From Escherichia phage Mt1B1_P17: a DNA stretch of 64,000 bases. Below the pieces are notes generated by a model that was not told the DNA's origin, did no database searches, and was given only the letters and a program-made list of their open reading frames with translations. The stretch lies in the sequence record NC_052662.1, one strand, 5' to 3'. A program made the translations under genes and the position numbers. This document shows positions 7,007-19,441 of this stretch, in pieces; position 1 is the stretch's first letter, and each line of letters opens with the position of its first letter.

Positions 7007-7085
7007 TGGAGGCGGGAATTGGATTTGAACCAATGATCTCCAGCATATGAAACTGGCGAGGACGACCAGACTCCTCTATCCCGCT
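7007..7085 (-). tRNA. tRNA-Met (anticodon CAT; could also be Ile-lysidine or initiator)
   Basis: cloverleaf read by hand: anticodon stem CCAGT/GCTGG, loop TTCATAT, T-arm ATTGG-TTCAAAT-CCAAT, CCA encoded; position 1-72 mismatched. Confidence 0.7.
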
Positions 7086-7091
7086 ATTAGG

Positions 7092-7161
7092 TATCCCGTG
7101 CTGGATTCGAACCAGCATCACAATAAGTTGTGGAACTCTTATCCTGTAAGTCTAACGGGAA
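7092..7161 (-). tRNA. atypical tRNA-like element (possible pseudo-tRNA)
   Basis: perfect T-arm GCTGG-TTCGAAT-CCAGC and 6/7 bp acceptor stem, but only about 70 nt and no canonical anticodon arm could be folded. Confidence 0.3.
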
Positions 7162-7163
7162 AT

Positions 7164-7237
7164 TGGTTGTTTCGACAAGAATCGAACTTGTGTCTCACGA
7201 TTATCAGTCGTGGGTTCTACCATTGAACTACGAAACA
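7164..7237 (-). tRNA. tRNA-Ile (anticodon GAT)
   Basis: acceptor TGTTTCG/CGAAACA, D-arm GTTC..GAAC, anticodon stem CACGA/TCGTG with loop CTGATAA, T-loop TTCGATT, CCA encoded. Confidence 0.8.
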
Positions 7238-7243
7238 TTAAAT

Positions 7244-7320
7244 TGGTCGGAATTGCAGGATTCGAACCTGCGACCCTACGCTCCCAAAGCGTATGCTCTA
7301 CCAAACTGAGCTAAATTCCG
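7244..7320 (-). tRNA. tRNA-Pro (anticodon TGG)
   Basis: acceptor CGGAATT/AATTCCG, D-arm GCTC..GAGC, anticodon stem TACGC/GCGTA with loop TTTGGGA, T-arm GCAGG-TTCGAAT-CCTGC, CCA encoded. Confidence 0.8.
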
Positions 7321-7325
7321 TTATA

Positions 7326-7401
7326 TGGCTGGTCTGTCTGGATTTGAACCAAACCTACGACAGTCAAAGTGTCGTGTGCTACCTGACTACACTACAAACC
7401 A
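7326..7401 (-). tRNA. tRNA-Gln (anticodon TTG)
   Basis: acceptor TGGTTTG/CAGACCA (one G-U pair), anticodon stem CGACA/TGTCG with loop CTTTGAC, T-loop TTCAAAT, CCA encoded. Confidence 0.7.
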
Positions 7402-7499
7402 ATAAATCATTTAATGAAGGGCAACCAGAAGAGGTGTGAGAGAAGGAGAAAACCATGAGTAAAAGAGAAAGTTTTCTGGCAACCCTTTATTAAATAATT

Positions 7500-7573
7500 T
7501 GGAGCGTTCTACGAGGATCGAACTCGTGCCGCCGACTTGGAAGGACGGAATGCTACCGCTACACCAAGAACGC
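7500..7573 (-). tRNA. tRNA-Gly (anticodon TCC), tentative
   Basis: acceptor GCGTTCT/AGAACGC, T-arm ACGAG-TTCGATC-CTCGT, anticodon loop CTTCCAA with one T-T mismatch in the stem, CCA encoded. Confidence 0.55.
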
Positions 7574-7584
7574 CCTACCTCTTT

Positions 7585-7613
7585 ACTATACTACATTTTA
7601 CTATTGGTTGTCA
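7585..7613 (-). promoter_or_regulatory. sigma70-like promoter (TTGACA, 17 nt spacer, TATAGT) reading into the tRNA sub-cluster
   Basis: CTATTGACAA motif copy on the minus strand, about 35 nt upstream of the tRNA-Gly 5' end. Confidence 0.5.
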
Positions 7614-7887
7614 ATAGTTTTATTGAGTGGGACAGTGACGAGTATCCCATTGGGTGACTAGCCCTACGTTCGGTAAGCTAACTTAAAATAATACAAAACC
7701 AAAGTCAAATATTATTCTTCGTTGCTGTCGATGGGAGAGCCGCTTCTTCTTTTGCCCCATCCAACCCTACTCCGGTCAAGTTTCAGGTAACTCTTTTTGT
7801 GATCAACACAATACTAAGAACACTGTCTTTCGAGCAGACCTTGTGCACAGGATACGACGATCAATCACAGTGCTCTTAATGTTGTGT

Positions 7888-7962
7888 TGGTGCTCCCACT
7901 CTGAATCGAACAGAGATCCACGGATTACAAAACCGTTGTAATAGCCATTATACTATAGGAGC
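7888..7962 (-). tRNA. tRNA-Thr (anticodon TGT), tentative
   Basis: acceptor GCTCCTA/TGGGAGC, T-arm CTCTG-TTCGATT-CAGAG, anticodon loop TTTGTAA on a 4 bp stem with one U-U pair, CCA encoded. Confidence 0.5.
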
Positions 7963-7968
7963 AAAGCT

Positions 7969-8045
7969 GGGACTCGGCAGGATTCGATACCTGCAATTCC
8001 AGAAGCCTCTTGGCGACTGGGGGTTTACCTTAACTCTACAAGTCC
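7969..8045 (-). tRNA. atypical tRNA-like element with 8-nt T-loop
   Basis: 7 bp acceptor stem (GGACTTG/CGAGTCC) and T-arm GCAGG-TATCGAAT-CCTGC, but the central region folds as an extended hairpin, not a canonical anticodon arm; no CCA. Confidence 0.3.
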
Positions 8046-8052
8046 ATAATTC

Positions 8053-8138
8053 TGGCGATGAGTATAGGATTTGAACCTATATCGTTCTTTCGAACACGGA
8101 TTAACAGTCCGCCGCTTAAACCATTCAGCCAACTCATC
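8053..8138 (-). tRNA. type II (long variable arm) tRNA, anticodon loop reads GTT
   Basis: acceptor GATGAGT/ACTCATC, anticodon stem GCGGA/TCCGT with loop CTGTTAA, 15-nt variable arm hairpin GTTCGAAAGAAC, T-arm ATAGG-TTCAAAT-CCTAT, CCA encoded. Confidence 0.5.
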
Positions 8139-8144
8139 TTAATT

Positions 8145-8232
8145 TGGTGGTGAGTGATGGAGTCGAACCACCCGAATCGCAATGATAACAGATTTACAGT
8201 CTGCCCCGCTACCCCTACGGAATTAACTCACC
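8145..8232 (-). tRNA. tRNA-Tyr (anticodon GTA), type II
   Basis: acceptor GGTGAGT/ACTCACC, anticodon stem GCAGA/TCTGT with loop CTGTAAA, long variable arm, T-arm GGTGG-TTCGACT-CCATC, CCA encoded. Confidence 0.7.
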
Positions 8233-8362
8233 TAAATACTAATATTTAAATTCTTTTTAAAATAGCCAGTGTTCACACCACTAACTATGAGTTATCGGTA
8301 AGATGGTGGAGGCCATCTGCCGAAAGTTTACTCTATTAAAGTAAGCTATATTAAAAAGAACT

Positions 8363-8448
8363 TGGCGGTAGATGTAGGACTCGAACCTACACGCCGTTTC
8401 CGACTACAGTTTAGCAAACTGTCGTGGCTACCATTTCACCAATCTACC
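8363..8448 (-). tRNA. tRNA-Ser (anticodon GCT), type II
   Basis: acceptor GGTAGAT/ATCTACC, anticodon stem ACAGT/ACTGT with loop TTGCTAA, long variable arm, T-arm GTAGG-TTCGAGT-CCTAC, CCA encoded. Confidence 0.8.
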
Positions 8449-8452
8449 AATC

Positions 8453-8543
8453 TGGCGGAAGGAGGGAGAGTCGAACTCCCAAGGCTCTTTCAAGCTCGGC
8501 GGTTTTCAAGACCGTTTTCGTCGCCACGTCGATTTGCCCTTCC
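8453..8543 (-). tRNA. tRNA-Ser (anticodon TGA), type II
   Basis: acceptor GGAAGGG/TCCTTCC, anticodon loop CTTGAAA, long variable arm, T-arm GGGAG-TTCGACT-CTCCC, CCA encoded. Confidence 0.7.
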
Positions 8544-8551
8544 ATACTTAT

Positions 8552-8580
8552 AATCTAACATAAAATAATGTTAGTTGTCA
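8552..8580 (-). promoter_or_regulatory. sigma70-like promoter (TTGACA, 17 nt spacer, TAGATT) upstream of the tRNA-Ser pair
   Basis: third copy of the CTATTGACAA motif on the minus strand. Confidence 0.4.
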
Positions 8581-8777
8581 ATAGTTTTTTAAAACATTTT
8601 ACCATGAATGGTGACTCCACCAACCCCCGTTCTCAACGAACGGTGCTCTTCGAGCATTTATGTCTTCTAATATAACCGTGGCCTTTGTTTATAATGTCTG
8701 ACATACTTGCCTCATTCTCTGCCACCATGATCAGTAGTGGGTTCAAATCACTTGAGCTAATTCATGTTAAAATGTTC

Positions 8778-8852
8778 TGGTGTCTTTACAAGGAATCGAA
8801 CCTTGACTAAGAGTTTAGAAGACTCCTGTGCTATCCATTACACCATAAAGAC
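8778..8852 (-). tRNA. tRNA-Arg (anticodon TCT)
   Basis: acceptor GTCTTTA/TAAAGAC, D-arm GTGT..CAC, anticodon stem GGAGT/ACTCT with loop CTTCTAA, T-arm CAAGG-TTCGATT-CCTTG, CCA encoded. Confidence 0.8.
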
Positions 8853-8854
8853 GT

Positions 8855-8929
8855 TGGTGGCCCTGGCTGGTTTCGATCCAGCTACCTATCGGTTATGAGC
8901 CGACAGCTCTCCCATTGAGCTACAGGGCC
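8855..8929 (-). tRNA. tRNA-Met (anticodon CAT; second CAT tRNA)
   Basis: perfect acceptor GGCCCTG/CAGGGCC, D-arm GCTC..GAGC, anticodon stem GTCGG/CCGAT with loop CTCATAA, T-loop ATCGAAA, CCA encoded. Confidence 0.7.
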
Positions 8930-12206: not shown

Positions 12207-12673
12207 GAATTAAAGTAACTAAAGCTTACGATGATAACCCGAAGTTTATCTCTTTGAATAAGAGTTATGGTGTCGAAAACGGCGATGAGTTCGAGGTTAT
12301 CGATCTTTTTGAGGATCACGGGTATATTGTCAAAGCCCCAATCACAGAGCAGGCTATTATCATCTTACGCACAGAGGCTGTTGAGGTAGGTTCTGATGAA
12401 CCTCAATATGACAGCCCATACATGACAGAGTGGATTGTGGCTGTAGATGTTGGAGGCAGGGTTTCTGTATTGAAAGCTCCTAATCTCCATCCTAGTTTTA
12501 CAGAGAACGGTTTGACAGCTTTAGATTACGGGTTGCCAGAAGATGTTGAGAATACACCGCCAGGTATGTACCGTTGGATTTGCTCTTTCCATGAAGAGAA
12601 GGATTGGGAATCAGGGCTTGTAGATGATTGGCATTTTGAAGTGGAGAGTTCTTTTTTAATCATGCCAGCTTAG
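12203..12673 (+). CDS. hypothetical protein
   Basis: 156 aa, RBS AAGGAGG. Confidence 0.55.
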   Translation: MRIKVTKAYDDNPKFISLNKSYGVENGDEFEVIDLFEDHGYIVKAPITEQAIIILRTEAVEVGSDEPQYDSPYMTEWIVAVDVGGRVSVLKAPNLHPSFTENGLTALDYGLPEDVENTPPGMYRWICSFHEEKDWESGLVDDWHFEVESSFLIMPA

Positions 12674-12683
12674 AGGAGGTTAT

Positions 12684-13040
12684 ATGGGTACTATTATTTG
12701 GCTTGATGATTTACGTGATCCAAAAGATTATGGTTGTCCAGATGCAATCTGGTTTAAAACATCACAGGAACTTCTTGCCTCTCGCTACATGAATGAGGTG
12801 CAGAAGGGTTATCGTTTTGTAGACGAGTGGCATTTTGACAACGATTTGGGTGAAGATTCTGACCAAGATGGGTATGATGTTTTCCTGTGCCTGGAAGAAC
12901 TTCTGGCGTTTGGTAAACCTTGCTTTGGTTCACCTACCATTTTCGTGCATACTTCTAATCCCGCCGCTGGGGATAAATTCATGCTTGCAAAAGAATCCAT
13001 GCTGCGTTATGGTATTAAAATGATTCGTGTGCACTACTAA
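12684..13040 (+). CDS. hypothetical protein
   Basis: 118 aa, RBS GAGGAGG. Confidence 0.55.
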   Translation: MGTIIWLDDLRDPKDYGCPDAIWFKTSQELLASRYMNEVQKGYRFVDEWHFDNDLGEDSDQDGYDVFLCLEELLAFGKPCFGSPTIFVHTSNPAAGDKFMLAKESMLRYGIKMIRVHY

Positions 13041-13049
13041 GGAGAAAAC

Positions 13050-13193
13050 ATGCATCATTCGGTTTGGTCGGAACAAGAAGAGGACGAAGGTTACTTTATC
13101 TACCGAGAAGAAGAGGATTGGCCCGACACAAGTAATGATCTTTTACTTCCAGACACTAGTTTTTTCGAGGATAACTTAAGAGAGGAGGATTAG
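13050..13193 (+). CDS. small acidic hypothetical protein (47 aa)
   Basis: ATG after AAGGAG; below the ORF-track size cutoff. Confidence 0.4.
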   Translation: MHHSVWSEQEEDEGYFIYREEEDWPDTSNDLLLPDTSFFEDNLREED

Positions 13194-13199
13194 GAAACA

Positions 13200-13556
13200 A
13201 TGAGTGGTATTGAAAACAACATTTGTTACCAACCTCTTACCTGGATTGGTGAGGGTCATTATGCGCAACGTGTTATCGTCTGTGCTGCGAATAAGTATAT
13301 TTTGAATAATGGTGAAGAGTTAATTATTCCTTGTGTTCGACATGCAAATCCTGTACTATATGCACAGTTAAGCGTGTTGAAAGAAGCAGGTGTAATCAAC
13401 AAAACTTTGTGCACACCAGATAATCAAGGCTTTATCGATCAGTATTACAATTGGTGGAGTCGTGCGGATGCTTACATCATCGCGGAAAATGCTGACCAGA
13501 TCGACCATGAGCGTAATGGTCACGACCATGAATTATTTAGCGAGGGATTATACTAA
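13200..13556 (+). CDS. hypothetical protein
   Basis: 118 aa, RBS GAGGAGGA. Confidence 0.55.
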   Translation: MSGIENNICYQPLTWIGEGHYAQRVIVCAANKYILNNGEELIIPCVRHANPVLYAQLSVLKEAGVINKTLCTPDNQGFIDQYYNWWSRADAYIIAENADQIDHERNGHDHELFSEGLY

Positions 13557-14107
13557 TGTTTATTACAAGCGATTTGCATTTTATGCATAAACGTATTCGA
13601 GAGTTTGCTCCTGAATATCGTCCGTGGGAAGATATGGACCACATGACAGAAGCCTTGATCGAAGCATGGAACAAATGTGCTACTACTCCTGGTGTTAAGA
13701 TGTGGCATTTGGGCGACTTCTGTTTCGGAACTGAAGAAGATACCCGTAAAATTGCTTCCCGTCTCCAAGGAGATATCACCTACTGTGTTGGGAACCATGA
13801 CTACAGCAAACACCGAGAAGTGCTTGCAGAGTATGGAGAAGTGGTGTATTATGACGAAGTGAAATATCAGAAGCTGTTCTTCGTCTTAAGCCATTACCCT
13901 ATGGCCTCCTGGAATAAACAAGGTCGTGGATCAATCATGCTACACGGGCATTCCCACGGATCTTTCCCTGATGAAGCTTATGGTAAAATGTTAGATGTGG
14001 GTTGGGATGCACACGGAAAAATCTTGCATTTTGATGAGATAATTTCTATGATGAGTAAACGAGATATCGTGACTGTAGACCATCACAAAATAATCAAAGG
14101 AGAATAA
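13556..14107 (+). CDS. calcineurin-like metallophosphoesterase (candidate RNA end-healing phosphatase)
   Basis: 183 aa; motifs DLHFMH, GDFCFG, GNHDY, LHGHSHG; immediately followed by ligase-like and kinase genes. Confidence 0.7.
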   Translation: MFITSDLHFMHKRIREFAPEYRPWEDMDHMTEALIEAWNKCATTPGVKMWHLGDFCFGTEEDTRKIASRLQGDITYCVGNHDYSKHREVLAEYGEVVYYDEVKYQKLFFVLSHYPMASWNKQGRGSIMLHGHSHGSFPDEAYGKMLDVGWDAHGKILHFDEIISMMSKRDIVTVDHHKIIKGE

Positions 14108-14108
14108 T

Positions 14109-15041
14109 GTGGCTAAATTTAATTGCGACGATTTGGTTGAAAAAGGTTTAGTTCATAAGAAAACATATAAAGAAGGAGAGTATTCTGGTCTATCTGTTCT
14201 TAAGTATAAGAACAAAGTTTTCTGGGATAACTTATGGAGCATTGATTCTCGTCTTCTAGAATGTCGCGGAATCGTTGTTGATGCTGATGACAATGTTGTT
14301 ATTTGGCCTTTCACTAAGATTTTTAATCGTTTTGAGAATGGCACAGATCTACCAGCGGATGAACTTGTAGATGTGGTTCGTAAAGTAAATGGTTTTATGG
14401 CCTCTGTAGGTGTATATAAAGGTCAACTTATTGTATCGACAACAGGAAGCCTTGAATCAGATTTTGCAAGTATTGCAAAGAATCATATTGTTTCAGAGTG
14501 TGATGACATAGAACATTTCATCAAATGGACAGAGAGTGCAAAAGCAACTTTCCTTTTTGAAATCTGTGATCCTTCTGATCCGCATATTGTCGAAGAAGAA
14601 CCAGGTGCATACTTAATTGGTGCCAGAATTCAAAATCCTGATGGGACAAGTTTTATGTTACCTGAAGGTGCTCTTGATGGAATTGCTTCTGTCACCAAAT
14701 TTAAGCGTCCTGAAGTTCATCCAATGGTTAAGTTTTCAGATGTTGTTGAAATGTCTAAACATTGTAAACACGAAGGGTTTGTAGTTCGTGAAACAAACTA
14801 TCCGTTCAACTTACTTTTAAAAATTAAATCACCACACTATCTTACTAAGAAGTTTCTTATGCGCGGTGGAGATAAAAAGTGGGATCTGATTTGGGATAAT
14901 CCAAAAAATGCCAAACAAATGGTTGACGAAGAATATTACGCTTTGTTAGAATGGATTCGAAATAATTTTACGAAGATTCAATGGGCTGCTTTAAATCAGC
15001 AAGAGCGACGTGAAAAAATCGAAAACTTTTTTGGAGGATAA
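14109..15041 (+). CDS. putative RNA ligase-like nucleotidyltransferase
   Basis: 310 aa; KxNG motif (RKVNGF) as ligase motif I, KxK motif (LLKIKSP) as motif V; 2 nt from the upstream gene. Confidence 0.5.
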   Translation: MAKFNCDDLVEKGLVHKKTYKEGEYSGLSVLKYKNKVFWDNLWSIDSRLLECRGIVVDADDNVVIWPFTKIFNRFENGTDLPADELVDVVRKVNGFMASVGVYKGQLIVSTTGSLESDFASIAKNHIVSECDDIEHFIKWTESAKATFLFEICDPSDPHIVEEEPGAYLIGARIQNPDGTSFMLPEGALDGIASVTKFKRPEVHPMVKFSDVVEMSKHCKHEGFVVRETNYPFNLLLKIKSPHYLTKKFLMRGGDKKWDLIWDNPKNAKQMVDEEYYALLEWIRNNFTKIQWAALNQQERREKIENFFGG

Positions 15042-15446
15042 ATGAAACAACTTATCATTTTACGTGGTGTTTCAGGTGCTGGTAAATCTACAGTAGCAGA
15101 AATTATTTCTGAAGGTTATTGGCCTATCTGTGAGGCAGATCAATATCATTGCACAGAGAGTGGTGTTTACGATTGGAAGCCAGAAAATGTAGGTAAAGCA
15201 CACGCATGGTGTCAGGGTATTGTTCGTGATGCTATGGCATCTAATCTTAACAAGATTATTGTTTCTAATACTTCAACCACAGAGAAAGAACTTAAACCTT
15301 ATCTAGCTCTTGCTGAAGAGTTTGGTTATCAAGTTATCTCTTTAGTTGTTGAAAATAGGCACGGTAATGATTCAATTCACGAGGTTCCACAATATATCCG
15401 TGATCAGCAAGAGAAACGTCTTCGTGGTTCACTTAAACTTCAATAA
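15042..15446 (+). CDS. P-loop polynucleotide 5'-kinase-like protein
   Basis: 134 aa; Walker A GVSGAGKST, acidic residue in CEADQY, size and layout like the T4 Pnk kinase domain. Confidence 0.6.
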   Translation: MKQLIILRGVSGAGKSTVAEIISEGYWPICEADQYHCTESGVYDWKPENVGKAHAWCQGIVRDAMASNLNKIIVSNTSTTEKELKPYLALAEEFGYQVISLVVENRHGNDSIHEVPQYIRDQQEKRLRGSLKLQ

Positions 15447-15455
15447 GGAGAAATA

Positions 15456-15782
15456 ATGCAGATTTATACAGATGATCGTAAATATGAGACAATTTTAGAT
15501 GAAGATACTGGACGAATTACCGTTCTCCGTCACGGTGAAGAGTGGCGTGATGAAACGGGAGACAATTATATCTTGTCTCTGATTCATCTTATTGAACAAA
15601 TGCGTGATGATTACGCTGAACTGCATTATGAAAATGAGGCTAATAAAGTAAAATTTGAAAATGAATTAGAAGAGAAAGAATCCGAAATGGTATATCTAAA
15701 AGAAGAGATCTCCCGTTTGGAGGAAGAGATTGATGCTCTTCAAGAAGAGATTTACGAACTCAACAACGAACTTAACGCTTAA
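15456..15782 (+). CDS. hypothetical coiled-coil protein
   Basis: 108 aa, C-terminal heptad-like EE-rich segment. Confidence 0.5.
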   Translation: MQIYTDDRKYETILDEDTGRITVLRHGEEWRDETGDNYILSLIHLIEQMRDDYAELHYENEANKVKFENELEEKESEMVYLKEEISRLEEEIDALQEEIYELNNELNA

Positions 15783-15791
15783 GGAGGGATT

Positions 15792-15983
15792 ATGAAAAAA
15801 GATATCGTTGTTGTTGGTTGGCTGACTTGCCCTTGTGGTAGTAATGACATAACTGTAAACACAGAGGGTGATAAAAATTATTTATTCTACGGGGATAAAA
15901 TCACTTGCAATACCTGCGGACGTGTTGGTATTATAGAAACCGATGATTGTTGTGCTTTTGAATCTTGGGATGAAGAAGAATGA
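15792..15983 (+). CDS. small zinc-ribbon protein
   Basis: 63 aa; CPCG ... CNTCG pairs. Confidence 0.5.
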   Translation: MKKDIVVVGWLTCPCGSNDITVNTEGDKNYLFYGDKITCNTCGRVGIIETDDCCAFESWDEEE

Positions 15984-16201
15984 GTACTGCATTTTATGTT
16001 CGTAGCGGAGACGAGGATTTTTTAGCTACTTTTGATGACGGTGATCTTGAAGATATGTATGAAGATATGCTTGACTATGCCAAAGGGCAAGGTTTCACAA
16101 GCATTGATTACATGTTGGCAACATCTACAACGTTACTCGACGCAGATTTGGATGAAGTGTGTAACAGATTGAAAATTTCAGTTTTTAAATGGGAGGACTA
16201 A
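15980..16201 (+). CDS. hypothetical acidic protein
   Basis: 73 aa. Confidence 0.45.
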   Translation: MSTAFYVRSGDEDFLATFDDGDLEDMYEDMLDYAKGQGFTSIDYMLATSTTLLDADLDEVCNRLKISVFKWED

Positions 16202-17316
16202 TGCAACAAACAAATCAAACGCTGTATGGTAAAGATTCAAAAGGAAAACTTAAACAGTGGACAGTGTATACAGATGGTGCAGTTGTTACTGTAGCTCATG
16301 GAAGAGTAGGTGGAAAAATCACAGAAAAATCTTATACAGCAGAAGCAAAAAACATTGGTCGCTCCAATGAAACAACACCGGAAGAACAAGCTGAACTTGA
16401 AGCTTTTGCCAAATGGACAAAACAGTTAAAGAATGGTTATTATAAAACAAAAGAAGAAGCTGAAAACCATGTTCCTTCCACACCAATGAAATGCCAGGAT
16501 TATAAAGATTATCCTGAAAGGGTTGTGTTCCCTGGTTATGCACAATACAAACTGAACGGGTTACGTTCTATGATTAACATGAAAGGAGAGTGTTTATCAA
16601 AAGCTGGGGAAGTGTATAACCTGCCACCTCATTGGAAAGGTATTCCAAACTTTATTAGTGAAGTTGTTGGTCATCCTCTTGATGGTGAAGTGTTTGCTGG
16701 GTTAGGTGTCCTTAGTCTGCAACAAATTAACAGCGCCTGGAAGAAGCATAATGCAAATACACCTTTGCTGAATTATTACGTATACGATATTCCAGTTCCA
16801 GATCTACCGTTTGAAAAACGTGTTGATGTTCTTGCTGCTCTTAAGGCAGTAGTTGAAGATTATGGTCTTGATGAGCTTATTTGTGTAGTTCATACAGAGT
16901 ATATTGAAAACCAAGAACAGTTTGATGCTTTCTATGAAAAAGCTTTACTTGAGAAAGCTGAAGGTGTAGTATATCGTAATGCTCACGGAGTTTACGAATT
17001 TGATAAACGTTCTTATGACGTTATTAAACGTAAGCCTCGCCATACCCTTGAAGTTAAAGTAACAAATTCAAAAAGTGATAAAAATGGCGATGGAGTGTTG
17101 ACAGGTGAGATGGAAAATGGTAAAGTAGTCGAATTCTTAATGCGTAAAGATGCTCATGAGACTATCAATTATCGTAAAGCAGAGAATGCTTCTACCTTGA
17201 TTAATCAGTTTGTTGAAATAGAGTATGAAGAATTTTCAGATGAAGGTATTCCAACAAAACCTGTTGGTGTTCGTATTCGAGAAATGATCCCAGGCACTTG
17301 GGAACCAGCAGAATAA
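16189..17316 (+). CDS. ATP-dependent DNA ligase
   Basis: 375 aa; motif I KLNGLR (KxDG-type), later KxK motif (VIKRKP); size matches small phage-type ligases. Confidence 0.6.
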   Translation: MGGLMQQTNQTLYGKDSKGKLKQWTVYTDGAVVTVAHGRVGGKITEKSYTAEAKNIGRSNETTPEEQAELEAFAKWTKQLKNGYYKTKEEAENHVPSTPMKCQDYKDYPERVVFPGYAQYKLNGLRSMINMKGECLSKAGEVYNLPPHWKGIPNFISEVVGHPLDGEVFAGLGVLSLQQINSAWKKHNANTPLLNYYVYDIPVPDLPFEKRVDVLAALKAVVEDYGLDELICVVHTEYIENQEQFDAFYEKALLEKAEGVVYRNAHGVYEFDKRSYDVIKRKPRHTLEVKVTNSKSDKNGDGVLTGEMENGKVVEFLMRKDAHETINYRKAENASTLINQFVEIEYEEFSDEGIPTKPVGVRIREMIPGTWEPAE

Positions 17317-17325
17317 GGAGGAAAA

Positions 17326-17520
17326 ATGTTCTTAGCCATTTTAATCGTTTTCAGTGTGCTTTCTTTTTATTGTATGAATGCTTCGGAAAGCTTTCCTAAG
17401 AATTCAAAGAAAAGAACCGTATGTATTGCGATTGATTCATGTATGTCTGGAGTTGGGTATGCGGTAGTTTCTTGTTTCTTAGCTTATCATTGTGCAAAAT
17501 ACCTGGAGGCATTTTTATGA
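17326..17520 (+). CDS. small membrane protein
   Basis: 64 aa, hydrophobic N-terminus. Confidence 0.4.
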   Translation: MFLAILIVFSVLSFYCMNASESFPKNSKKRTVCIAIDSCMSGVGYAVVSCFLAYHCAKYLEAFL

Positions 17521-17708: not shown

Positions 17709-18434
17709 ATGATCGAGAATTTTTTTAAAGATATTAAATTCGATACTGAATTTTTCAAAAATGCAGCAAAGCACGTAATTGATTGGAATGCCAAAGCACG
17801 AGGTGGTGAACAACCTGAATTCACTCAAGAGTTATTTATGTCCCAAATCGGGTTCGTTCGTGAAGAGCTTAAAGAGTATGAAACAGCCGCGAAAGTAAAC
17901 GATCATGTAGAACTCTTGGATGCAGCAGCGGATATTTTTGTAGTATCCAGTTATCTGACTTACATGTTCTTTGGTGAAGAACATACGATGAATTTCTTGG
18001 ACTATGCTGTAGGCGATGTTTTTACTCCAACTGTGTATACTGATTTTGATGCTTTGGAACAAACATTTACAGAGCCAGTTCAAATGGCACTAATGGCTGC
18101 TGGTATTATGCGTATGTCTCGTGACACTCTAATCCGTTCAAAATATCCAGAAAAGAAAGTTATTAAAGAGGTATTGAAAAGTAATGATTCCAAGTATCCA
18201 ACTAAACAACAGTTGCTGAAAACTTGGAAAACTTCGGATATCGATTCAGCCATTGCACAAGAATGCGCTGCAATTGAAGAACGAAATGCCAATCGTCCAG
18301 AAGGGGCATACACTGGTGTTCATGCTGTTTATAATGAAAAACAGAAAGTGTATGTGTTCTTTGATGATAAAGGTAAGATCATGAAACCATCGACCTTTGT
18401 CAAACCTAATATTGCAGGTATTATTAACAAGTAA
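17709..18434 (+). CDS. MazG-like nucleoside triphosphate pyrophosphohydrolase domain protein
   Basis: 241 aa; EELKEYETAAKVNDHVELLDAAADIF resembles the MazG ExxExxE ... D metal-binding helix pair. Confidence 0.45.
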   Translation: MIENFFKDIKFDTEFFKNAAKHVIDWNAKARGGEQPEFTQELFMSQIGFVREELKEYETAAKVNDHVELLDAAADIFVVSSYLTYMFFGEEHTMNFLDYAVGDVFTPTVYTDFDALEQTFTEPVQMALMAAGIMRMSRDTLIRSKYPEKKVIKEVLKSNDSKYPTKQQLLKTWKTSDIDSAIAQECAAIEERNANRPEGAYTGVHAVYNEKQKVYVFFDDKGKIMKPSTFVKPNIAGIINK

Positions 18435-19402: not shown

Positions 19403-19441
19403 GCCTACCTACTTAATGAGGTAGGCTTTTTAGGAGGCGTT

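Follow-up and report, generated by a model that had tools for sequence, protein, structure and literature searches.

What is the function of three abutting genes at positions 13556-15446 of Escherichia phage Mt1B1_P17? The locus lies in a 64,000-nucleotide stretch of sequence record NC_052662.1 (the window, whose first letter is position 1), and an original prediction made from the letters of the window held that a calcineurin-type metallophosphoesterase, a ligase-like nucleotidyltransferase and a P-loop kinase encoded here act together on RNA as a counter-measure against host anticodon nucleases. We consider it likely that the three genes represent a phage 'heal-and-seal' RNA repair module. 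This reading is based on the families and folds assigned to the proteins, on catalytic residues that are intact, and on operon structure, gene fusions and conserved linkage; what the enzymes act on, how exactly the 3' end is processed (2'-OH versus 2'-PO4) and a role in counter-defense are what we infer. The cassette is genuine, intact and widely conserved, and it has already been annotated and predicted in print. The record of phage Schickermooser (GenBank MK373788) labels the three products 'putative phosphoesterase or phosphohydrolase', 'putative RNA ligase' and 'putative polynucleotide kinase', and the equivalent neighborhood of phage V5 was predicted by Iyer et al. (2022; PMC9503650) to be an RNA-repair system, which in their reading cleans up 2',3'-cyclic phosphate RNA ends for ligation. 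The support newly added here consists of kinase::ligase fusions, phosphoesterase fusions and co-occurrence counts.

Three proteins encoded in one operon

The three genes are located on the + strand exactly where they had been placed (Table 1), each abutting or overlapping its neighbor. There is a gap of one nucleotide between the stop codon of the phosphoesterase gene and the GTG of the ligase gene, and the ATG of the kinase gene directly follows the ligase TAA, while neighboring genes are otherwise separated by spacers of about 9 nucleotides, each with a Shine-Dalgarno sequence. Each of the three open reading frames has its own stop codon and its own ribosome-binding site. These tight junctions agree with the translational coupling that had been proposed, although not with its restriction to three genes: the stop codon of the upstream gene at 13200-13556 overlaps the phosphoesterase start (TAATG), and therefore four genes are coupled rather than three. 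The cassette is part of a long + strand operon that ends at a terminator-like stem-loop (19403-19426) downstream of rdgC, the first convincing one, and the Schickermooser record has a terminator annotated at the matching site. A promoter scan found 40 candidates where 33.7 were expected, which is no excess over chance, and the operon probably belongs to the early or middle expression class. The window represents a Phapecoctavirus (subfamily Stephanstirmvirinae; phAPEC8 group), one of the well sampled myoviruses of E. coli with genomes of about 150 kb. In a megablast search with positions 12600-17400, Escherichia phages WPEC1, WPEC2, WPEC4 and WPEC6 were 100% identical and many further Phapecoctavirus members were 97.6-99.2% identical.

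Pfam, PHROG and the conserved motifs bear out the family assigned to each of the three products; an NCBIfam scan yielded sub-threshold matches only. The first is matched by Pfam Metallophos (PF00149; E=3.1e-5, 24.9 bits against a cut-off of 21.5) and by phrog_547, 'phosphoesterase' (E=6.5e-56), and its family numbers 11,113 cluster representatives at E<=0.001. All of the metallophosphoesterase motifs (DxH...GD...GNH[DE]...H...GHxH) are present, with G53-D54, G79-N80-H81 and G131-H132 invariant in 30 sequences and the metal-binding residues D6, H8, D54, N80, H81, H113, H132 and H134 invariant in 30 homologs. When a profile of 30 homologs was searched against the PDB, the nearest solved relative was Aquifex aq_1665 (1xm7; E=3.2e-25) followed by GpdQ (E=7.5e-5), and neither the lambda phosphatase nor the phosphatase of Clostridium thermocellum Pnkp (CthPnkp) was reached at E<=0.01; the phosphoesterase therefore falls outside the lambda/Pnkp clade. 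With the single sequence, aq_1665 was the sole PDB match. In favor of a role in 3'-end healing, there are metallophosphoesterases with proven 2',3'-cyclic phosphodiesterase activity, those of CthPnkp and lambda phosphatase (PMC2190708). A second, distinct metallophosphoesterase is encoded elsewhere in the window (36769-37512, + strand; PF00149, E=2.7e-13); its counterpart in near-identical phages carries the annotation NinI/lambda-like Ser/Thr phosphatase, a clade with proven 2',3'-cyclic phosphodiesterase activity. Judging from this relationship, it could likewise act on RNA ends.

The middle protein is a ligase of the Rnl1/Trl1 group and not of the Pnkp type. It matches Pfam RNA_lig_T4_1 (PF09511; E=3.8e-15, 56.8 bits against a cut-off of 28.3) and phrog_562 (E=3.4e-70), and the KxNG and KxK motifs that had been pointed out (K92-V-N-G and K238-I-K240) are indeed present and invariant in 27 homologs. 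A profile built from these homologs, which are 49-86% identical, matched T4 Rnl1 (2c5u; E=2.8e-10), and a PDB search with the single sequence gave no match. The invariant ligase residues R53, K70, F72, K92, E151, E222-G223, K238 and K240 align with R54, K75, F77, K99, E159, E227-G228, K240 and K242 of T4 Rnl1, respectively, and these T4 residues, together with K119, were reportedly found to be essential by Wang, Ho and Shuman in 2003. The AlphaFold2 model of the ligase is confident (pLDDT 91.3, pTM 0.85), and its best fold matches are the Trl1 ligase domain and T4 Rnl1, so that the ligase fold, whose lack would have counted against the original prediction, is there in the model. The overall fold of the model, including a helical C-domain, is that of the Trl1 type (Rnl6), and an Rnl4-type ligase domain, as in bacterial Pnkp, was not found. 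The ligases linked to the kinase family across viral loci are of two subtypes, one T4-like (about 370 aa, with motif I KMDGS, ATRGS and EIIYPENRIVV) and the other that of the window (about 300 aa, with KVNGF, STTG, EICDPSDPHIV and KIKSPHYLxKKFLMR). The label 'tail fibre attachment' that many annotations carry is inherited from T4 gp63, and we rejected it as nothing here supports it.

The closest characterized relatives of the third protein are, by sequence comparison, polynucleotide 5'-OH kinases. The members of its family stand alone and are 126-145 aa long, and the window protein matches Pfam AAA_33 (PF13671; E=3.9e-10) and phrog_2071, 'ATPase' (E=3.7e-55), with a weaker match to phrog_505, 'polynucleotide kinase' (E=5.1e-8). 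Residues G12, G14, K15, D33, N76, T77, E104, R106, H113 and P116 are invariant in the family, and the P-loop (G9-x-x-G12-x-G14-K15-S16) and D33, the putative general base, are invariant or nearly so. A single-sequence PDB search gave P-loop noise only. The kinase profile, on the other hand, ranked 4xrp (Pnkp1 of the Pnkp1-Rnl-Hen1 complex; E=1.8e-6), 1ly1 (T4 Pnk; 4.4e-5, with 1ltq, also T4 Pnk, at about 5e-5), 9d8a (7e-5) and 4gp7 (the kinase domain of CthPnkp; 3.2e-4), in that order, as its top PDB matches. The entry 9d8a is RazKIN, a stand-alone RNA 5'-OH kinase from Mucorales (identity according to PMC11571804), and the six best matches also include 9drz, a P-loop protein that aligns in the same way as RazKIN and for which no paper was traced. 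Matches to polynucleotide kinases extend over the whole kinase domain, whereas gluconate, adenylate and other kinases match the P-loop stretch only. The resemblance to the T4 Pnk kinase domain noted in the original prediction is hence confirmed, with D33 aligned to D35, the T4 Pnk general base.

Taken as a pathway, the metallophosphoesterase would open and/or strip the 3'-terminal phosphate, possibly with the help of the upstream cREC (cyclic-phosphate-processing receiver-like) protein, the P-loop kinase would phosphorylate the 5'-OH, and the Rnl1/Trl1-type ligase would be adenylylated on K92, pass adenosine monophosphate to the 5'-phosphate and seal the break.

Fusions and linkage of the three families across viruses

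In three independent IMG/VR contigs, kinase and ligase are fused in a single protein of about 431 aa (Table 1), in which a kinase match (E=1e-45 to 1e-53) is followed by a match to the ligase subtype (E about 1e-90); the two subfamilies that the window encodes separately are thereby united. The fusion of the kinase family to the ligase family argues against a nucleoside kinase, an activity that would have spoken against repair. Phosphoesterase fusions point in the same direction. The homolog P0363, 53% identical to the window phosphoesterase, carries a PF09414 RNA ligase domain in the same polypeptide, and in the homologs P0387 and P0391 the phosphoesterase is joined to HAD_SAK_2, a 'Swiss-army-knife' RNA-repair phosphatase domain. 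The ligase domain of P0363 was considered as a member of the window-ligase family and rejected, as it belongs to PF09414 and hhalign gave no match; this fusion supports a functional link and not orthology.

The set of phosphoesterase, ligase and kinase genes, either in order or rearranged, is present in Vequintavirus, in Pakpunavirus-like phages and in an unrelated 58-kb metagenomic contig (L008), and no fewer than 675 records of phage genomes contain the cassette, from phages of Escherichia, Pseudomonas, Vibrio, Klebsiella and other hosts. In the 58-kb contig, genes for cREC, a phosphoesterase::ligase fusion, a long Rnl1, the kinase, DNA ligase, MazG and RdgC follow one another in the order of the window. 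In Vequintavirus CM1 the kinase and phosphoesterase genes are divergent from a ligase-cREC-Sir2-MazG series, and in the Pakpunavirus-like Pseudomonas phages the phosphoesterase gene abuts the ligase gene with the kinase gene close by.

Some details of these loci are noted separately. The two RNA ligases of L008 (5263-9224) are a phosphoesterase-fused PF09414 enzyme (Rnl2-like) and a separate T4-like Rnl1 of 371 aa, and a 51-aa PrlF-antitoxin-like gene lies between them. In two Pakpunavirus-like contigs (L005 1-14885 and L006 1-14396) the module is located amid genes for NAPRTase, a PRPP-synthetase-like protein and a Macro-domain protein, which is a nicotinamide adenine dinucleotide (NAD)-reconstitution and ADP-ribose-processing island. 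The kinase homolog of L005 is a 68-aa open reading frame (8076-8282) that is possibly truncated.

The linkage was quantified in 80 diverse viral loci that were picked solely for the presence of a kinase homolog, with 80 loci (907 kb) chosen for a ThyX homolog as controls. Within 6 kb of the kinase gene there is a phosphoesterase of the window family in 46 loci and a Rnl1-family ligase in 34, with 25 loci having both, compared with one phosphoesterase and no Rnl1-family ligase among the ThyX loci (Fisher p=9e-17 and 1e-12, respectively, values that are overstated, and in this respect count against us, as the loci share ancestry, although the contrast is still large).

Neighboring genes and tRNAs

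Table 1. The cassette, its neighbors and related features of the window, with kinase::ligase fusions on IMG/VR contigs.
Feature	Position	Strand	Details
Metallophosphoesterase, calcineurin-type, binuclear	13556-14107	+	183 aa; predicted 3'-end healing enzyme (2',3'-cyclic phosphodiesterase and/or phosphomonoesterase)
ATP-dependent RNA ligase, Rnl1/Trl1 type, short subtype	14109-15041	+	310 aa, GTG start; predicted adenylylated nucleophile K92
Stand-alone P-loop polynucleotide 5'-OH kinase-like protein	15042-15446	+	134 aa; PF13671
cREC domain protein	12684-13040	+	PF20274 (E=1.6e-13); candidate accessory end-processing enzyme
T4_Y16D-family protein	13200-13556	+	118 aa; PF26092
ATP-dependent DNA ligase	16201-17316	+	PF01068 (E=1.7e-9); phrog_114 (E=1.9e-74)
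MazG-like pyrophosphohydrolase	17709-18434	+	PF01503 (E=2.7e-6); phrog_671
Sir2-family protein	43435-44250	+	PF02146 (E=1.9e-22); candidate NAD-dependent 2'-phosphate remover
tRNA gene cluster	7007-8929	-	10 genes by ARAGORN, 11 by Rfam; possible substrates, context
Kinase::ligase fusions	L028 5962-7254; L074 5965-7260; L081 568-1863

Two of the neighboring genes, those for cREC and MazG, are syntenic with the cassette both in the 58-kb contig and in Vequintavirus CM1. The cREC domain was defined, and its function predicted, in the jumbo-phage study of Iyer et al. (PMC7824862), and MazG is listed as a component of the published neighborhood (PMC9503650). The Sir2-family protein of the window is an orthologue of that of CM1 (phmmer E=9.7e-81); its gene is situated 28 kb downstream of the cassette, and in Vequintavirus it directly adjoins those for the RNA ligase and cREC.

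It is doubtful that the gene at 13200-13556 is a member of the repair system, in spite of its coupling to the phosphoesterase gene. Its product has a confident structure model and yet neither a sequence match nor a fold match in the PDB, and its T4_Y16D family is not found beside ligases in T4-like, jumbo and other phages and is present in only 7 of the 80 kinase loci. On these grounds it is not counted as a fourth component. The DNA ligase gene that the original prediction had noted at 16189-17316 is real (PF01068 and phrog_114), but its start is more likely 16201 because the coding sequence of relatives is annotated as 1116 nucleotides and because an ATG at this position overlaps the stop codon upstream of it (TAATG). 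The gene is syntenic with the module in four other loci (L005, L006, L008 and L011), and it is probably a context gene of the operon that stands outside RNA repair.

The tRNA cluster that had been brought into the argument lies about 4.6 kb upstream of the cassette on the opposite strand and in another transcription unit, and any link between the two is conjectural; a tRNA cluster likewise adjoins the module in Vequintavirus CM1. ARAGORN identified tRNAs for Met (two), Ile, Pro, Gln, Gly, Thr, Asn, Ser and Arg. An eleventh (8148-8232, - strand) was scored by Rfam at 39 bits and not called by ARAGORN, and since it aligns to the tRNA-Tyr of CM1 (anticodon GTA) it is probably a tRNA-Tyr gene. Neither program placed tRNA-Lys, the classical target of PrrC, among the cluster genes. 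The gene called as tRNA-Asn (GTT; 8053-8138, - strand) is 86 nucleotides long, which is the length of the adjacent long-arm Ser/Tyr tRNA genes and unusual for Asn. In another part of the window, 40239-41180 (+ strand) encodes a 313-aa protein that consists of DUF7277 (E=1.1e-13) and DUF7275 (E=7.5e-76).

Evaluation of the repair module and its alternatives

Several observations weigh against an RNA repair module. A literature search (Phapecoctavirus/phAPEC8 RNA ligase; COG4186, aq_1665) found no functional study of the three subfamilies, and aq_1665, the closest solved relative of the phosphoesterase, is itself a structural-genomics protein without a known function. In the ligase, the position of the essential K119 of T4 Rnl1 is occupied by an invariant T112 ('STTG' compared with 'KSKG' in T4), where the T4-like ligase subtype of other loci retains R or K, and the C-terminal domain is about 65 aa rather than the approximately 120 aa of T4 Rnl1, with no T4-type tRNA-specificity domain recognized in it. 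In the kinase a near-invariant H36 is found at the position of T4 Pnk R38, and the invariant lid residue R106 ('ENRHG') aligns with T4 Pnk R122 and not with R126, although this alignment is ambiguous. According to what Wang, Lima and Shuman are said to have reported in 2002, Arg38 of T4 Pnk contacts the acceptor phosphate and Arg126 is the lid residue. Lastly, the cassette is surrounded by DNA-metabolism genes (DNA ligase, RdgC and exonucleases). It is this setting that favors an explanation we think improbable, in which the kinase and phosphoesterase clean 5'-OH/3'-phosphate DNA ends for the DNA ligase and the RNA-ligase-like enzyme is DNA-related or has some other use. The three genes do share an operon with these genes and with nucleotide-metabolism genes, the DNA ligase recurs beside the module in four lineages, and activity on the 5'-OH ends of DNA is known in vitro for both T4 Pnkp and the kinase of Mucorales (PMC11571804). 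However, the phage already encodes a separate DNA ligase, the phosphoesterase homologs are fused to an RNA ligase or an RNA-repair HAD domain and the kinase to an RNA ligase, and the partners cREC, Sir2 and MazG point to RNA or NAD chemistry. That chemistry could also be directed at small molecules, with the phosphoesterase, cREC and MazG degrading immune signals derived from cyclic nucleotides or ADP-ribose as a form of counter-defense, the kinase acting on nucleosides or nucleotides, and RNA not being a substrate at all. Such roles of cREC, MazG and calcineurin-like enzymes, on ADP-ribose derivatives and cyclic nucleotides, have been proposed (PMC7824862, PMC9503650), Iyer et al. termed the kinase a 'nucleotide kinase' (PMC9503650), and there are NAD-salvage and Macro neighbors in the Pseudomonas-phage relatives. 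We nevertheless give this very little credence: an intact, conserved RNA ligase would be left without a role, the kinase::ligase fusions speak against it, and it is the polynucleotide kinases that the kinase profile matches domain-wide, with nucleotide and gluconate kinases matched at the P-loop only.

The remaining alternative accepts RNA repair and differs in its chemistry. In this Trl1-like, NAD-linked pathway, the phosphoesterase and/or cREC would convert the cyclic phosphate into a 2'-PO4 end, the ligase would depend on this 2'-PO4 and read it, like the tRNA ligases of fungi and plants, and Sir2 with NAD+ would remove the junction 2'-phosphate as an analog of Tpt1/KptA. The scheme originates with Iyer et al. 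(2022; PMC9503650), and what is added here are a conserved histidine of the Trl1 type, the KxNG motif and the fold match of the C-domain. Fungal Trl1 reads the 2'-PO4 of its substrate by means of a His beside motif III (CthLIG H227 / Sce H193) and two Arg after motif V (CthLIG R334/R337; PMC11404444). When the ligase profile was compared by hhalign with the Trl1 ligase domain, using Trl1 sequences taken from PDB alignment output (84.9% probability, E=6.5e-6), 'FEICDPS-DPHIV' of the ligase was paired with Trl1 'AELCDDSFEEHIL', which therefore puts the invariant H159 on the 2'-PO4-binding histidine of Trl1, at a position where neither T4 Rnl1 nor the T4-like ligase subtype has a histidine. Motif I of the window ligase is KxNG as in Trl1, compared with KxDG in T4, and the structural overlap of the ligase model, its C-domain fold included, appears larger with Trl1 than with T4 Rnl1. 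Two further invariant residues, K248 and R252, follow K240 at distances of 8 and 12 and are tentative counterparts of the Trl1 pair R334/R337, in a region beyond the reach of hhalign; by our own reading of its sequence, T4 Rnl1 likewise has H250 and K253 in this stretch. The Sir2 orthologue that adjoins the ligase in Vequintavirus and the NAPRTase, PRPP-synthetase-like and Macro genes around the module in Pakpunavirus-like relatives are also consistent with an NAD-linked reaction. Against this, the nucleotidyltransferase domain is closer in sequence to T4 Rnl1 (E=2.8e-10), Trl1 was not found by HMMER with the ligase even at E<=10, the sirtuin of Mt1B1_P17 is 28 kb away, and a metallophosphoesterase like that of CthPnkp would normally remove the phosphate completely. 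To our knowledge, moreover, no sirtuin is known as an RNA 2'-phosphotransferase. We regard the Trl1-like pathway as possible but doubtful.

The heal-and-seal RNA repair module hence remains our preferred reading, and by analogy with T4 it is plausible that it serves as a counter-measure against a host defense that cleaves tRNA or other RNA. Hosts commonly counter phages by cleaving tRNA (PrrC, RloC, Cas13 and further systems that target tRNA), and we know of no phage repair pathway with experimental proof other than that of T4 Pnkp and Rnl1. If active, the cassette would establish RNA repair as a widespread form of counter-defense and could help to predict which hosts are overcome; among its carriers are phAPEC8-like, rV5-like and PaP1-like phages, which are frequent candidates for phage therapy. 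The three proteins (short ligase, 134-aa kinase and aq_1665-type phosphoesterase) represent biochemically uncharacterized subfamilies, and the ligase may prove interesting both for use as a reagent and for the evolutionary connection it may offer between T4 Rnl1 and eukaryal Trl1. Were the Trl1-like reading to be true, the ligase would be the viral equivalent of the eukaryal enzyme, a phage would be running a complete fungal-style tRNA ligation pathway in bacteria, and the Sir2 family would gain a new kind of activity, removal of the junction 2'-phosphate.

Comparison with known repair systems

The T4 Pnkp and Rnl1 system, which counters PrrC, has in common with the cassette a 5'-OH kinase, a 3'-end phosphoesterase and a Rnl1-family ligase. 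All of the nucleotidyltransferase residues of T4 Rnl1 except K119 are shared by the window ligase, and the general-base Asp of T4 Pnk is conserved in the window kinase. The two systems differ in that the kinase is fused to a phosphatase in T4 Pnkp and stands alone in the window, in that 3' healing is carried out by a HAD/DxDxT phosphatase in T4 where the window has a binuclear metallophosphoesterase, and in that the window ligase is 64 aa shorter than T4 Rnl1 and has a different C-domain, the KxNG motif and an extra His as in Trl1. The repair genes of T4 are also dispersed, while the three genes of the window are contiguous.

The sirtuin-centered neighborhood of Escherichia phage V5 and Proteus phage Mydo (Iyer, Burroughs, Anantharaman and Aravind, 2022; PMC9503650) comprises a T4-like tRNA ligase, cREC, a 'nucleotide kinase', MazG and, optionally, a calcineurin-like phosphoesterase. 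All five V5-type families are encoded between 12684 and 18434 in the window, each protein being orthologous to its CM1 counterpart. The arrangement is different, as the phosphoesterase, ligase and kinase genes of the window are collinear and translationally coupled, whereas in Vequintavirus those for the kinase and phosphoesterase are divergent from the ligase gene, and the V5-type coupling of sirtuin and ligase is absent from the window with its distant sirtuin gene.

The tRNA-splicing ligase and the RNA 5'-OH kinase of Mucorales are separate proteins (PMC11571804), and the same split between ligase and kinase is seen in the window. Systems based on Trl1 use a 2H cyclic phosphodiesterase for healing where the window has a metallophosphoesterase, and they employ Tpt1, which the window lacks, Sir2 being the sole candidate substitute. 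The similarity of the window ligase to the Trl1 ligase domain was seen in profile-to-profile comparison only.

Bacterial Pnkp (Clostridium thermocellum Pnkp/Hen1), with which the cassette had been equated, has the same three chemical activities and also relies on a calcineurin-type enzyme for 3' healing. The equation is correct in that these activities reside in three separate open reading frames of the window, compared with three domains of one polypeptide in Pnkp, but it does not extend to ancestry, as the ligase is not Rnl4 and the phosphoesterase lies outside the lambda/Pnkp clade to which the lambda-phosphatase-like domain of Pnkp belongs. A split bacterial Pnkp was accordingly rejected as a label for the cassette on the clade tests of both ligase and phosphoesterase. 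The better analogs are the T4 Pnkp and Rnl1 system, with a metallophosphoesterase in place of the HAD phosphatase, and the tRNA-splicing system of Mucorales.

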